From: Candidatus Omnitrophota bacterium
GTDB taxonomy: Bacteria; Omnitrophota; Gorgyraeia; Aquiviventales; Aquiviventaceae
Direction: 5' to 3'
NCBI GenBank assembly: GCA_030697665.1
Contig: JAUYPJ010000022.1
Location: 11 to 64,010 of the forward strand
Length of the DNA stretch: 64,000 nt
Below the pieces are notes generated by a model, which saw only the letters and a program-made list of their open reading frames with translations, searched no databases and was not told where the DNA came from. Below, piece by piece: positions 24,432 through 52,618 of the stretch; within the stretch, counting starts at the first letter, position 1; every line of letters starts with the position of its first letter. Both the position numbers and the translations under genes were made by a program.

Positions 24432-24520
24432 CCGTCCACCGTCGGCCGTCCACAGCTAACTCGTATTGGGCGAGTTCTGGTTACCGTTACCGTAGACAAT
24501 GGACTGTGGACCGTGGACGG
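24432..24520. repeat. Short-unit tandem inverted repeat (7-nt units CCGTCCA / TGGACGG)
   Basis: Left arm CCGTCCACCGTCGGCCGTCCACAG (24432..24455). Right arm GGACTGTGGACCGTGGACGG (24501..24520). TTACCG TTACCG lies in between. The element spans the cmk stop and the plsC start. Confidence 0.8.
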
Positions 24521-25329
24521 CTATTGATGTGCCTGAGCATGACCCCAACCACCTGGGAGGCGGTCAGATGCGAGGTATCGATCACGATGGCACCCGGCGG
24601 TGTGATCAGGGGACCGATGCGGCGGCTGCGGTCGAGGCCGTCCCGGAAGTGAAGCTGCTCCCGGACCTGGACCAAGGGGGGGCACGTGCCGTAGAGCGCC
24701 TTCAGCTCCCGCTGCCGGCGCCTGGCGCGAATCGCCGGCGTGGCATCCAGGAAAAACTTGCAGGCGGCATCCGGAAAGACCACGGAGCCGGTGTCTCTGC
24801 CCTCAACGACCATCCCATGGCGATTCGCGAGCGCCCGCTGACGCTCCACCATGGCCTCACGGACTTCCGGGTGCTGCGAGAGTTGCGCCGCGGCCTCGGA
24901 GATCTCTTCCGTGCGAATCTGCCGCGTGATGTCGAGCCCGCCGAGGCTGACGCGCGGCGAGCCCGCGGGGGCGCAGCGCAGGCGCAGCGGCAACCGGCGC
25001 GCCAGCGCCGCCAGCCGCTGGACGTCCGTCACCGGGTTGAGCCGCTCCCGATGGTCCCACCCCCTAGCGCTGCCCGAAGGGCCTGCGCCTGCGGCGCAGA
25101 TTCGCCTCCGGCGGATGCGCCAGGGGGTGGGATGGAGAGCCGCATAGGCGAGGGCGCGGTAGGTCGCCCCGGTGTCGAGGTAGGCGATCCCAAGACGCCG
25201 GGCCAGCCGTTGCGCCGCCGTGCTCTTGCCGACGCCGGCCGGGCCGTCGATGGTGATCACCAGTGACTGGGTGACTGGGTGACTGGGTGACTGGGTCGAA
25301 GAACGTGAGCGCTCAGTCGGGGAGGGCAT
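24487..25329 (-). CDS. cmk: Cytidylate kinase carrying a 26-aa in-frame insertion
   Basis: P-loop DGPAGVGKST. An alternative GTG start at 25260 (VITIDGPAG) would leave the 8-mer repeat outside the CDS. The insertion HPTPWRIRRRRICAAGAGPSGSARGW is encoded by a palindromic element. Confidence 0.9.
   Translation of the reverse strand: MPSPTERSRSSTQSPSHPVTQSLVITIDGPAGVGKSTAAQRLARRLGIAYLDTGATYRALAYAALHPTPWRIRRRRICAAGAGPSGSARGWDHRERLNPVTDVQRLAALARRLPLRLRCAPAGSPRVSLGGLDITRQIRTEEISEAAAQLSQHPEVREAMVERQRALANRHGMVVEGRDTGSVVFPDAACKFFLDATPAIRARRRQRELKALYGTCPPLVQVREQLHFRDGLDRSRRIGPLITPPGAIVIDTSHLTASQVVGVMLRHINSRPRSTVHCLR
25055..25132. repeat. CCCACC-terminated palindromic element, copy inside the cmk coding sequence (78 bp, in frame)
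   Basis: Termini are TCCCACCCCCTAGCGC and GCGCCAGGGGGTGGGA, complementary at 15 of 16 positions. There is an internal stem CTGCGCC-TGC-GGCGCAG. 78 nt equals 26 codons. Confidence 0.7.
25263..25296. repeat. Tandem 8-mer array GTGACTGG x4 (single arm)
   Basis: Read directly from the sequence. It lies between the tyrA stop (25313) and the cmk P-loop region. Confidence 0.85.
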
Positions 25330-26152
25330 GGCGGATGGCTTGCGCGCGGCGCAGGAACCTGCCTAATGCGGCCCGATCCCCATGCACGAGCTGGTCGCGC
25401 AGCAGGCGCCATCGTCGGTCAAACTGCTCACCGGCCGTGACGAGCGCCGAGGAATTGCTGAAGAAAATCTCGCTCCACAGCGCGGGGTCACTGCGCGCCA
25501 CGCGCGTCGCTTCGAGGAAACTCCTGGGCGCGATCGCCACAGCGCGAGGCGGTGTCGCCCCCACCAGGCAAAACGCCAAGAGGTGGGGCAGATGGCTGAC
25601 CGACGCCACGAGCCGATCATGGCGTTGAGGGTCCATGACCACGACCCGCCGCACCAGCGGCGCCCAGAGCCGGCGGACCACGCGCAGGGCCCGACGATCG
25701 GTCCGCGCCGTCGCCGTCAGGAGGCACAGCGATGCCTCAAACAGCTCCGCGCGGGAGGCGCGGATGCCGGACTGCTCGGAGCCGGCGAGGGGGTGGCCTC
25801 CAATGAACGACACCTGTGACGGCATCGATCGCTCCAGCGCCCGCACGATGCCTCCTTTGGTGCTGGCAACGTCGGTGAGGATGCTCCGCGCGGGCATGAA
25901 CGGCGCCAGGCGCTGCGCGATCGGGACGACCGCCTCCACCGGCGTGGCGATCACCACGACGTCCGCCGCGCCAACCGCCTGTCGGGGGTTGGTCGTGCCC
26001 TCATCGATGGCGCCCCGCCGCGCGGCCTCCCGCAGCGTCGAGGCCTTCCGGCTCAGCCCGATCACGCGGCGGGCCAGGTGATGGCGCCTGATCGCCATCC
26101 CCAGCGACCCGCCGATGAGCCCGAGTCCCACGATGGTGACTTGTTGAAACAT
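25313..26152 (-). CDS. tyrA: Prephenate/arogenate dehydrogenase
   Basis: The ATG at 26152 gives MFQQVTIVGLGLIGGSLG (Rossmann GxGxxG). The ORF track over-extends to 26473 through the upstream gene. Confidence 0.9.
   Translation of the reverse strand: MFQQVTIVGLGLIGGSLGMAIRRHHLARRVIGLSRKASTLREAARRGAIDEGTTNPRQAVGAADVVVIATPVEAVVPIAQRLAPFMPARSILTDVASTKGGIVRALERSMPSQVSFIGGHPLAGSEQSGIRASRAELFEASLCLLTATARTDRRALRVVRRLWAPLVRRVVVMDPQRHDRLVASVSHLPHLLAFCLVGATPPRAVAIAPRSFLEATRVARSDPALWSEIFFSNSSALVTAGEQFDRRWRLLRDQLVHGDRAALGRFLRRAQAIRHALPD
26089..26122. repeat. 34-bp perfect direct repeat, copy A (inside the functional tyrA 5' end)
   Basis: TGATCGCCATCCCCAGCGACCCGCCGATGAGCCC is identical to 27633..27666. 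Confidence 0.85.
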
Positions 26153-26160
26153 GGCGGACC

Positions 26161-50795: not shown

Positions 50796-50880
50796 GTGTA
50801 CAGCGTCCAGCGTACAGCGTACAGGGAAACATAGGAAAGGCGTTCCAGTGCACGCTGAACGCTCTACGCTGAACGCTACA
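50796..50880. repeat. Short-unit tandem inverted repeat (7-nt units CAGCGTA / ACGCTGA)
   Basis: Left arm GTGTACAGCGTCCAGCGTACAGCGTACAGG. Right arm CACGCTGAACGCTCTACGCTGAACGCTACA. It fills the gap between the serA stop and the purA start. Confidence 0.85.
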
Positions 50881-52465
50881 GTTTGATGAGTTTGGCATCG
50901 AGCACGTGCTGGAGCCGCTTGACCTGCTCCAGGACCTTGGGAGGCACATGGTCATCGACGTTCACCACGGTGATCGCCGTCCCGCCCGGCTCATCCCGTC
51001 CGTTGCTCATCCCGGCGATGTTGATCTTGGACTCGCCCAACAACATGCCGAGGTGGCCGATGAGCCCGGGCTTGTCCTGGTTTTTGATGATGAGCATGTA
51101 GCCTTCCGGCACCGCCTCCACGAAGTACCGGTCGATCTTCACGATGCGCGGCTCCCGCCGGGCGGACAGCGTGCCCTGCAACGCCAGGGACCTTCCGTCC
51201 GCGCGGACCTCCAGGGCCAGCAGGTTGGCGAACTCGTCCATCCGGCTGGCCTTGGCCTCGATCACCTTCACGCCGCGCTCCGCCGCGATCAGTGAGGCGT
51301 TGACGTAGTTCACGTTCTCCCCTACCATCGGCGACAAGATGCCTTTCAAGACGGCCAGCGTCACCGAGGCGGTGTCGTGCGTCGTCATCTCCCCGACGTA
51401 GGTGACCCGCACCTCGTCCATCTGCCCGCCGGAGAGCTGCGAGGCCAGGGAGCCCAGCCGCTCCCCCAGGACGATGTAGGGGTGGAGGACCTTCAACGTC
51501 TGGGCGTCCACCGAAGGCATGTTGACGGCGTTCCGGATCCCGCGTCCCAACAGCGCATCCGCCACCTGCCGGGCGACCTCGATCGCCACGTTGAGCTGGG
51601 CCTCCTCGGTCGAGGCGCCCAGGTGGGGCGTGCAGACGACCTGATCGAGCGTCACGAGCGGGTTGTCCTTCGGCGGCTCCTCCTCGAACACATCCAGGGC
51701 CGCCCCGGCCACCTTACCCTCCACCAGGGCGCGGTGGAGGGCCTGCTCGTCGATGATCCCGCCCCGCGCGCAGTTCACCAGGCGAACCCCCGGTTTCATC
51801 CGGGCGATCTCCTCGGCGCCGATGAGATGGCGCGTCTCATCCGTCAATGGGGTATGGACCGTGATGATGTCCGCCTCGGCATAGAGGTGGGCGGCATCGG
51901 TCACCTGGATCTCAAGCTGCTGGGCGCGCTCCGTCGAGAGGAACGGATCGTAGGCGACCACCCGCATGCCGAAGGCCTGGGCCCGCTTGGCCACTTCAGT
52001 GCCGATCCGCCCCAGCCCGACGACCCCCAGCGTCTTCCCGAACAGCTCGGTCCCCACGAACTTGGCGCGTTCCCACCGGCCCGCCCGCACGTGCGCATCG
52101 GCCTGCGGGATGCGCCTGGCCAACGCCAGGATCATGCTCATCGTGTGCTCGGCCGTCGACATCGTGCTCCCCGACGGGACGTTCATGACGATGATGCCCC
52201 GCTTCGTGGAGGCCTCGGCATCGACGTTGTCCAGCCCGACGCCGGCGCGTCCAATCACCCGCAGGCGCTTGGCACGCTCGATGACCGCGGCGGTAACCTT
52301 GGTCGAGCTGCGCACGATGAGCCCCTCGTAGGAACCGATGATCTCGGCCAGCGCCTCGCTGGACAGCCCGGTCTTCACCTCCACCTTCAACTGGGATTCC
52401 TGCGTGAGCACGCGAAGGCCCTCATCCGACAGATGGTCAGCCACGAGGACGTTGATCTGTGCCAT
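50876..52465 (-). CDS. serA: D-3-phosphoglycerate dehydrogenase
   Basis: The ATG at 52465 gives MAQINVLVADHL. 2-hydroxyacid dehydrogenase core plus ASB/ACT C-terminal domains. The ORF track over-extends through the repeat. Confidence 0.92.
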   Translation of the reverse strand: MAQINVLVADHLSDEGLRVLTQESQLKVEVKTGLSSEALAEIIGSYEGLIVRSSTKVTAAVIERAKRLRVIGRAGVGLDNVDAEASTKRGIIVMNVPSGSTMSTAEHTMSMILALARRIPQADAHVRAGRWERAKFVGTELFGKTLGVVGLGRIGTEVAKRAQAFGMRVVAYDPFLSTERAQQLEIQVTDAAHLYAEADIITVHTPLTDETRHLIGAEEIARMKPGVRLVNCARGGIIDEQALHRALVEGKVAGAALDVFEEEPPKDNPLVTLDQVVCTPHLGASTEEAQLNVAIEVARQVADALLGRGIRNAVNMPSVDAQTLKVLHPYIVLGERLGSLASQLSGGQMDEVRVTYVGEMTTHDTASVTLAVLKGILSPMVGENVNYVNASLIAAERGVKVIEAKASRMDEFANLLALEVRADGRSLALQGTLSARREPRIVKIDRYFVEAVPEGYMLIIKNQDKPGLIGHLGMLLGESKINIAGMSNGRDEPGGTAITVVNVDDHVPPKVLEQVKRLQHVLDAKLIKL

Positions 52466-52472
52466 CGTTCTT

Positions 52473-52618
52473 AGTCCATAGTCCACAGTCCATAGTCCAT
52501 AGAATCCAGAAAGCAGAAGGCGGTAGGCAGAAGGCAGTGAACAGATCGCGACACGATGCTGCCGACTACGTTCTGCATGCTGCCTTCTTTGCACTACGGA
52601 CTATGGACTATGGACTCT
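52473..52618. repeat. Compound short-unit tandem inverted repeat (GTCCATA x4 + CAGAAGG-type units / complements)
   Basis: The left half is AGTCCATAGTCCACAGTCCATAGTCCATAG followed by CAGAAAGCAGAAGGCGGTAGGCAGAAGGCAG. The right half is CTGCC...TTCTGCATGCTGCCTTCTTTG followed by CTACGGACTATGGACTATGGACTCT. The right end encodes the aminotransferase C-terminus (ESIVHSP then TAG). Confidence 0.85.

Follow-up and report, generated by a model that had tools for sequence, protein, structure and literature searches.

Tandem heptanucleotide arrays predicted to fold into stop-to-start hairpins at operon junctions of a Candidatus Omnitrophota genome

Heterocystous cyanobacteria reportedly carry short tandemly repeated repetitive (STRR) sequences with the units CCCCAGT, TTGGTCA and CAACAGT, and paired STRR arrays are said to be able to lengthen a helix in RNase P RNA. 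Long imperfect stems between cistrons are also known from phage T7, as RNase III hairpins, and from mRNA stabilisers of the repetitive extragenic palindromic (REP) type. As summarised in later papers, heptamers are the most abundant long simple sequence repeat (SSR) of bacteria, for which polymerase slippage has been proposed (Mrazek 2007, cited in PMC4679880 and PMC4692102), and Calothrix PCC 7601 has three STRR heptanucleotides (Mazel et al. 1990, cited in PMC4692102). The GGGAATC arrays of Xanthomonas include 70–75 convergent inverted pairs able to form stem-loops (Rehm et al. 2015, PMC4692102); they are transcribed, have no known function and vary in length between related genomes (PMC4692102). 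Marine Beggiatoaceae carry TAACTGA sets of 2–6 heptamers, mostly intergenic and ending a few nucleotides from a start codon (MacGregor 2015, PMC4679880), with one inverted pair in 170 sets (PMC4679880). Here we describe arrays of 7- and 8-nt units, single or in inverted pairs, at gene junctions of a 64,000-nt stretch of a Candidatus Omnitrophota genome (contig JAUYPJ010000022.1; 'the window').

An earlier note on this DNA, written from the letters alone, did not recognise the class. The architecture nevertheless matches the published heptanucleotide repeats of Calothrix/Nostoc (STRR), Xanthomonas (PMC4692102) and Beggiatoaceae (PMC4679880). We favour, with moderate confidence, the reading that the elements are fast-evolving palindromes with tandem 7–8-nt SSR arms, the Omnitrophota form of the heptanucleotide-repeat phenomenon (STRR/long SSRs). 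A description of such repeats in Omnitrophota was not found in the literature.

As in Xanthomonas, the tandem heptamers are mostly intergenic and lie between co-directional open reading frames (ORFs), near the end of the upstream gene. Unlike Xanthomonas, which has one G-rich, quadruplex-forming unit per genome, the window has at least six families, none of them G-rich (GTCCATA, GTGACTG, CCGTCCA, CACAGAG, ACGCTGT and CAGAAGG). Its stems also bridge stop and start and supply protein tails, sister strains differ by gain and loss of elements, and some elements are multi-copy together with their loops. The 7-nt unit, the several families per genome and the intergenic position within operons are shared with cyanobacterial STRR; the host is a member of the Omnitrophota, the units are its own and 8-nt variants occur, which rules out STRR in the strict sense. 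As with the Beggiatoaceae TAACTGA sets, some arrays overlap the end of the upstream ORF and carry stop codons in the forward orientation. The Beggiatoaceae sets have a single unit and almost no inverted pairs, whereas the window typically has inverted pairs and many different units.

Short intergenic palindromes that are multi-copy, polymorphic for presence and inserted between convergent or co-directional genes also recall REP/REPIN sequences (Bertels & Rainey 2011, PMC3116915) and MITEs (miniature inverted-repeat transposable elements). REP arms, however, are a fixed sequence of ∼20–25 nt recognised by a REP-associated tyrosine transposase (RAYT), while the arms here are tandem 7-mers. In further contrast to REPINs, unit number varies, loops are mostly unrelated and several elements are single-copy. 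The resemblance to the T7 RNase III hairpins, which are likewise mismatched intercistronic stems, is a functional analogy with no sequence relation; the elements here are not conserved between strains.

Arrays and hairpins at the gene junctions

Tandem Repeats Finder (TRF) called 16 arrays of period 7–8 with at least three copies in the window (∼25 per 100 kb). With the same settings, 100 dinucleotide-preserving shuffles averaged 0.42 such arrays, with at most 3 in any one shuffle. The periods form a sharp spectrum: 12 arrays have period 7 and four have period 8, with none at period 6 and one at period 9. The units run head-to-tail, fall in the 5–11-nt range of long SSRs and exceed chance, and complementary arrays occur as close, convergent, intergenic pairs of the Xanthomonas type. 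Fifteen of the 16 arrays lie in a ∼29-kb string of minus-strand housekeeping genes; from 23.7 to 58.3 kb every gene is a housekeeping gene on the minus strand. The gene order is plsC, cmk, tyrA, aroF, hisC, pheA, scpBA, trpS, infB, nusA, rimP, proS, ispG, rseP, dxr, cdsA, uppS, ompA, purA, serA, a class-V aminotransferase gene (AT5), clpP and tig. The window has a GC content of ∼65%, and its best protein matches are from Candidatus Omnitrophota metagenome-assembled genomes (MAGs; IspG 85–88%, ProRS 64–76% and AroF 73%). No heptamer array was found in the defence island at 5.5–17 kb.

Every complete element and single arm listed in the earlier note was recovered by TRF (period 7 or 8, 3.1–5.6 copies), together with three arrays that it had not listed, at 39435–39461 in proS, 40206–40233 and 43254–43292. 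The note's view that each locus has a different unit fails because units recur at four or five loci. GTCCATA/TATGGAC occurs at 28540, 32527, 48396, 52472 and 52593, and GTGACTG(G)/CCAGTCA at 25263, 29603/29685, 40206 and 43254. A third unit, NNGTCCA/GGACGGT, is found at two loci (24431/24489 and 39435).

The complementary second arms that had been described were found at four loci by pairing (24431/24489, 29603/29685, 50798/50852 and 52472/52593). The fifth hairpin, built of 8-nt units at 44384–44478, was seen by folding. The loops of the inverted pairs are 27–90 nt long. The five stems are imperfect, comprise 30–57 bp and span the stop codon of one gene and the start codon of the next; folded as RNA, the five hairpins give −41 to −80 kcal/mol (z −2.6 to −10.7). 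Pairing, folding and codon positions thus agree with the long imperfect stems at gene junctions of co-directional operons that the note had proposed.

With the start and stop codons of the flanking genes set by orthologue comparison, the 5′ arm of all complete elements begins at or overlaps the upstream stop codon, and in all five hairpins the downstream start codon lies 0–30 nt beyond the 3′ arm. The arrays encode C-terminal tails that run to the stop codon: ESIVHSP in AT5, SQSIVDSP in ScpA and SVTSGQ in IspG, as had been predicted, and also SRPRSTVHCLR in Cmk and a tail ending LRD in HisC. The predicted inflation of ORF-based N-termini by arrays was confirmed for serA, uppS and cmk.

All elements are described here in the sense of the mRNA, which is the minus strand. 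The cmk/plsC hairpin (24431..24518) was identified by TRF, pairing and RNA folding (−40.9 kcal/mol, z −4.0). Its 5′ arm (24489–24518) consists of NNGTCCA units, which code for the Cmk tail and lead into the stop codon at 24487–24489. The 3′ arm (24431–24453) consists of TGGACGG units, with the plsC ATG (24420) 10 nt beyond the arm end. The hisC/aroF hairpin (29603..29721; −63.2 kcal/mol, z −6.8) has four or five 7-bp helices (GUGACUG/CAGUCAC) with a 1 × 1 mismatch between helices. The hisC stop TGA (29713–29715) is inside the first unit, and the Shine–Dalgarno (SD) sequence and ATG (29575) of aroF follow, the ATG being 27 nt past the 3′ arm.

The rseP/ispG hairpin (44381..44488; −54.3 kcal/mol, z −2.6) is built from the 8-nt units CCACGGAA and CCACAGAG and their complements. 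It is bracketed by an 11-nt direct repeat, CAGGATGCTGA, with the right copy at 44357..44367 (minus strand) and the left copy at 44493–44503. The serA/purA hairpin (50796..50880) folds at −43.4 kcal/mol (z −5.4); its 5′ arm, which starts TAGCGTTCAGCGTAGAGCG, begins at the serA stop TAG (50876–50878), and its 3′ arm of 3.9 ACGCTGT copies ends 9 nt before the purA ATG (50788). The AT5/serA element (52472..52616) is a composite hairpin (−80.1 kcal/mol, z −10.7). Its outer GTCCATA/TATGGAC arms, at 52593–52616 and 52472–52502, enclose a nested inner hairpin with CAGAAGG/CCTTCTG arms at 52507–52537 and about 52566–52590. The outer 5′ arm codes for the AT5 tail, with the stop codon at 52594–52596, and the serA ATG (52465) is 6 nt past the 3′ arm.

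Fold energies showed no consistent asymmetry between sense and antisense strands (differences of 0, −12, +1, +6 and +9 kcal/mol). A search of the whole window against Rfam 15 at the gathering score gave a tRNA-Leu as its sole match and no match to a hairpin. A terminator scan of 44000–56500, which contains three of the five hairpins, detected no terminator-like site or T-tract at a hairpin; at the remaining two, read in the sequence, the 3′ arm is followed by SD/ATG, not by a T run. The missing T/U tract after the stems rules out intrinsic terminators. G-quadruplexes were excluded, as no unit contains a G3 tract. Integron attC sites do not fit either, given that the flanks are syntenic housekeeping genes without GTTRRRY cores and that the window has no integrase. 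CRISPR arrays were rejected on the grounds that the units are 7–8 nt long and contiguous and that partner arrays are inverted rather than direct.

Strain turnover, dispersal and distribution

Five relatives have the same gene order (loci L081, L083, L206, L207 and L208; 65–88% protein identity). Where the window has hairpins of 87–140 nt, the corresponding junctions in these relatives are 0–40 nt long, and the ancestral junctions are overlapping or 2-nt stop/start couplings. The relatives bear arrays of their own at other junctions.

We compared alleles in public sequencing runs: X1 is the source run, from groundwater, and X2, X3, X5 and X6 contain related strains, X2 and X3 being unrelated hot-spring runs. 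All strain alleles rest on assembled contigs and not on reads. The X2 and X3 strains lack the rseP/ispG hairpin and have TAA-CG-ATG at this junction; the 11-nt repeat CAGGATGCTGA is single in the inferred ancestral junction. At hisC/aroF there are four alleles among the sister strains. X2 and X3 contigs carry the hairpin with 3–5 substitutions, and in an X2 contig the same hairpin is 24 nt (3 × 8) shorter. In X6 the junction is 32 nt long, with an ATGA stop/start overlap, on one contig and holds a CCGGTTGG array on another, and X5 has an unrelated 108-nt sequence. At AT5/serA, a lone arm of four AGTCCAT copies directly abuts the ATG in the X2 and X3 strains. At serA/purA, X5 skips 50777–50876 and the hairpin is missing. 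Elements turn over between strains only a few percent apart, and the variation of unit number between strains that the earlier note had anticipated is shown at the contig level.

Copy number was judged by word depth in X1. The serA/purA hairpin is single-copy (depth about 10–12) and cmk/plsC shows no excess word depth (300-nt bin). In hisC/aroF the arms are multi-copy and the loop, whose depth was taken from X2, is single-copy. GTCCATA and GTGACTG arms reach 4–14×, and contigs join the same arms to unrelated loops. The rseP/ispG element has a word depth of 120–350 against 10 (12–35×), in arms and loop alike, and X1 contigs carry diverged copies, some of full length, at 85–99% identity. The AT5/serA composite has a depth of 29–168 against 11.5 in the flanks (3–14×; 29–57 in the inner part and 158 in one outer arm), with full-length diverged copies at about 86–95% identity. 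These two elements are multi-copy dispersed families, loops included, and MITE/REPIN-like dispersal is thus shown for two families. The note's preference for local generation over transposition suits single-copy hairpins such as serA/purA, which look locally derived, but fails for at least two elements, rseP/ispG and AT5/serA. Other than at rseP/ispG, flanking repeats are 4–5 nt long or absent.

A further pair of complementary arms flanks an accessory island. The arm at the ispG 3′ end (43254..43292, minus strand), of GTGAYNN units, codes for the IspG tail ISDECSVTSGQ and ends in the stop TGA. The arm upstream of proS (40201..40233, minus strand), of GGTCACY units, is complementary to 43254–43286; the two are 76% complementary over 33 nt and lie 3020 nt apart. 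Between them sits the 3-kb island (40234..43253, minus strand), with an N6-adenine methyltransferase (MAD2/type I-like), a weak type I S-like ORF and an ORF of unknown type. The island has zero depth in X5, almost none in X6 and little in X2 and X3, and ispG is joined directly to proS in X2 and X6 contigs. The island was ruled out as an autonomous transposon, since it contains neither a transposase nor an integrase domain. At the ispG end, tails of a similar VTS type occur in relatives, and L081 has three GTCACTN copies there with no partner arm and no island. The ispG/proS junction is also a recurrent hotspot for accessory-gene insertion (window, L206 and L208); the cargo is a 272-aa ORF in L206 (11189–12242) and a Phd/YefM antitoxin in L208 (9195–9868).

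The 39435 array (39435..39461, minus strand; 3.9 copies of CCACCGT) lies inside proS and codes for PTVHRPPST, the ProRS linker that directly follows the conserved EAARC (EAAxC). A near-perfect array of 4–5 heptamers is present at this site in four of the six genomes compared (window 39435–39461; L081 11822–11852; L206 12954–12988; L207 11794–11828), and the units are all different (CCACCGT, CAGTCCR, CAGCAGA and CAGAAGT). A 7-residue linker period, defined as at least three consecutive i/i+7 residue identities, is present in 34 of the 103 Omnitrophota ProRS homologues whose linker could be recognised; other lags gave 0–3. There are 30 distinct 7-residue periods, one of which, QSIVHSP, is a translated TAGTCCA-type unit, and linker length is nearly constant. 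The shared site, the differing units and the periodicity in about a third of homologues indicate that the unit drifts yet the array character persists.

Beyond the window, 18 other Omnitrophota loci have 6.6 arrays per 100 kb, 22 loci from Nitrospira have 2 and 40 others have 0.8. Hairpins of other heptamer units occupy the hisC/aroF junction in the Omnitrophota loci L003 and L007; L009 (36% GC) has only a short array there, with heptamer hairpins elsewhere in the locus. In L027, from a Nitrospiraceae MAG, a CGTTAAA/TTTAACG heptamer hairpin lies directly after aroF (4556–4632), and the architecture is therefore not limited to Omnitrophota. Among the fetched loci, 44% of 32 hairpins lie between a stop codon and an open frame on the same strand, compared to 4.7% of random placements.

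Three TAGTCCA copies in tandem occur in at least 120 metagenome contigs of 24–70% GC. In viral contigs, three permuted heptamers gave 3, 7 and 10 matches, TAGTCCA gave 6 and GTGACTGN gave 9. Permuted arrays being equally frequent, any heptamer array is about equally common, and these controls rule out a conserved cross-taxon heptamer vocabulary. That no unit is special across taxa agrees with the prediction of a generic slippage process.

The locus L146 (39% GC) has its best named protein matches in Omnitrophota. Within 10.8 kb it carries 20 heptamer or octamer arrays, which occupy the majority of its gene junctions, and the TAGTCCA unit is common to L146 and the 65%-GC window. L146 also has an 85-nt tandem repeat of heptamer arrays (5335–5573) just downstream of a sequence that by eye is tRNA-like, and its sugar dehydratase gene contains intein domains.

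Origin of the elements and alternative readings

If the elements are indeed SSR-armed palindromes, slipped-strand mispairing with a preferred 7-nt register would grow, shrink and homogenise the arrays. An inverted copy beside an array would make a hairpin, and hairpin- or cruciform-templated repair may then keep the arms complementary. Some hairpins would move by a MITE/REPIN-like route, reaching new junctions as well as the loops of other hairpins. The nesting in AT5/serA and the 3-kb island between complementary arms count in favour of the reading as a whole. Several stop-bearing units (TAG in TAGTCCA, TGA in GTGACTG) would end the upstream frame within a few codons and leave the downstream start intact. 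Arrays would accumulate at junctions, dispensable tails and linkers because only such sites tolerate them, and would persist at junctions because these are the only non-coding DNA in such compact operons.

In a polycistronic mRNA, mismatched stems of 30–57 bp bracketing stop and start would have to form. They would therefore probably affect the coupling of translation, processing of the RNase III type or 3′ stability, and such an effect looks like a by-product rather than a conserved function.

Several points weigh against this explanation. Slippage was not seen directly, the comparison being of contigs and not reads. Neither a transposase nor a RAYT gene was found among the window ORFs. The direct repeats beside the elements do not agree from one element to the next (11 nt at one locus, 4–5 nt or none elsewhere), and selection for function could account for the phylum-wide density at junctions. 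Pure slippage would also not easily homogenise a coding array, where a change of one unit is a frameshift, yet perfect five-copy arrays occur in proS.

The alternative that retains most weight, although we consider it unlikely, is that the elements are selected RNA elements: RNase III-type processing sites or 3′ stabilisers that would divide up a long polycistronic mRNA, devices tying downstream translation to termination upstream, or heptad arrays bound by proteins of the Csp/S1/CsrA type. The uniform placement of stop and start around all five hairpins would suit such elements, as would the coupled state of the ancestral junctions, the ∼9-fold enrichment of hairpins at co-directional junctions, the arrays at most L146 junctions and the way Beggiatoaceae TAACTGA arrays abut start codons (PMC4679880). 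Purifying selection alone, however, would also leave junction positions. The lack of sense/antisense asymmetry in fold energy, the presence/absence differences between close strains, the free variation of the units and the entry of the same arrays into coding tails and a coding linker all speak against selection, and there is neither an Rfam family nor a U-tract. A selected role in processing, stability or coupling is possible, but it is not supported by conservation or strand asymmetry. Among the RNA-seq runs searched, none contains the locus.

Rather less probable is a local, independent origin at each junction, by slippage and template switching in place with no movement between loci. The single-copy serA/purA and cmk/plsC hairpins and hisC/aroF loop accord with it. 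So do the resemblance of the serA/purA unit ACGCTGT to a relative's junction (CACGCTGTAACGCATG / ACGCTGTAACGC), the alignment of the last proS unit with non-repeat sequence of L208 and the different arrays at the same junction in different strains. Purely local events would scarcely place GTCCATA at five loci and GTGACTG at four, out of ∼1,170 heptamer classes, nor would they yield two families that are multi-copy with their loops, or the 11-nt flanking duplication with a clean empty site at rseP/ispG.

A more speculative proposal, at the lower end of what we would entertain, is that Omnitrophota have a dedicated system for writing, homogenising or reading heptamer arrays, with a small private 7-mer vocabulary in each genome; the arrays would serve as a cis code for post-transcriptional operon control instead of being slippage debris. 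It is doubtful, in the same degree, that arrays at most operon junctions and at one fixed codon of the essential proS gene, in a third of the phylum's homologues, would be read by array-binding proteins or an RNase. The perfect five-copy proS arrays, which keep their length while the unit changes, might be viewed in this way, again with little confidence.

We think it improbable, a shade more so again, that the elements are classical MITEs whose heptamer arrays are terminal inverted repeats for a transposase encoded elsewhere, the methyltransferase island being a cargo-carrying relative. The direct repeat and empty site at rseP/ispG, the multi-copy full-length copies, the inverted arrays flanking the island and the presence in the window of a clearly MITE-like non-tandem family flanked by TGA/ATGA all suit such elements. 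The same arms nevertheless carry unrelated loops, single arms occur often, several of the hairpins exist in one copy, the flanking duplications do not share one length, the L081 ispG-end array has neither partner arm nor island and the window has no transposase.

An assembly artefact can be practically dismissed: although short-read unitigs break within arrays, the elements are carried by independent assemblies, including Logan contigs of the source run that span whole hairpins without differences (a 4070-nt X1 contig across serA/purA, zero differences), X2 and X3 contigs with the hisC/aroF hairpin and the same architecture in many further assemblies.

Read as SSR-armed palindromes, the elements bear on a class of repeat that is the commonest bacterial long SSR and yet almost uncharacterised, and the window is a dense case from an uncultured phylum. 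Its arrays form stop-to-start hairpins, turn over between strains, seed mobile palindromes, flank accessory insertions and write protein tails and a linker. The greatest surprises are that elements turn over between strains at translationally coupled junctions, that mobile palindromes arise from simple repeats and that a heptamer-encoded ProRS linker is phylum-wide. For annotation, the arrays mean false N-terminal extensions, C-terminal tails that are real but meaningless, and short-read assembly breaks at junctions. They offer a tractable system for how simple repeats become mobile palindromes. If the hairpins do set coupling or mRNA processing, they would constitute a phylum-wide layer of operon control.

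Single arms, remnants and neighbouring loci

Three single arms and two weak remnants lie on the minus strand outside the hairpins and the island. The tyrA/cmk arm (25263..25296) consists of 4.2 copies of CCAGTCAC with 100% matches and stops 2 nt short of GTG 25260 (VITIDGPAGVGKS), the likely cmk start; in X1 its k-mers occur in multiple copies (depth 35, compared with about 10). The arm at 32527..32549, with 3.3 copies of AGTCCAT/AGTCGAT, codes for the ScpA tail QSIVDSP and includes the stop TAG (32527–32529), and the scpB ATG (32524) is 2 nt past it. The third arm (28540..28565; 3.7 copies of TAGTCCR) begins with the aroF stop TAG (28562–28564) and adjoins a strain-specific ORF, ORF270.

The two degenerate traces reported earlier are weak, neither being called by TRF. 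The first (48396..48423), between the hyp106 stop and the uppS ATG, has a lag-7 identity of 0.48 and contains one TAGTCCA-like and one CCAGTCA-like unit. The second (55622..55653), lying between the stop of an ABC-ATPase gene and tig, is a degenerate 8-nt array of four CCAWTNNN copies with a lag-8 identity of 0.67, below the TRF threshold.

ORF270 has no family match. It adjoins a DUF4143 AAA ATPase gene, both lying in the region 26161–28518; the ATPase was assigned to PDC-S01, a candidate defence family of PADLOC, with E 1e-105. The segment 27612–28514 is absent from X2, X3 and X5, and an AT-rich, promoter-like stretch lies at 27564–27610.

The defence island (5500–17300) has a lower GC content (0.56–0.61) and encodes a caspase-like peptidase C14, a ThsB-like TIR protein, RadC, a type I restriction–modification system (hsdR/hsdS/hsdM) and DUF1802. 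An unannotated gap of ∼1.9 kb is present in this region at 5472–7351. Outside it, in the region 2957–3772, an ORF with a LAGLIDADG-like domain directly adjoins tRNA-Leu(GAG) at 3688–3772.

The window also contains a second palindromic family that is non-tandem, at 53743–53851, 59895–60003 and 27422–27563. A 109-nt element with a three-way junction (−84 kcal/mol) lies between clpP and AT5, and a 97% identical copy lies between ftsQ and ftsA. The third member is a relative that shares a 15-bp stem (CCCACCACCTG.../...CAGGTGGTGGG) and is found in the 5′ untranslated region of the DUF4143 ATPase gene. All three are flanked in the order TGA, element, ATGA, and the family resembles a MITE that inserts at ATGA stop/start overlaps and remakes both codons. 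On the 3′ arm, 3 nt (GGG) separate an SD-like AGGTGG from the ATG.

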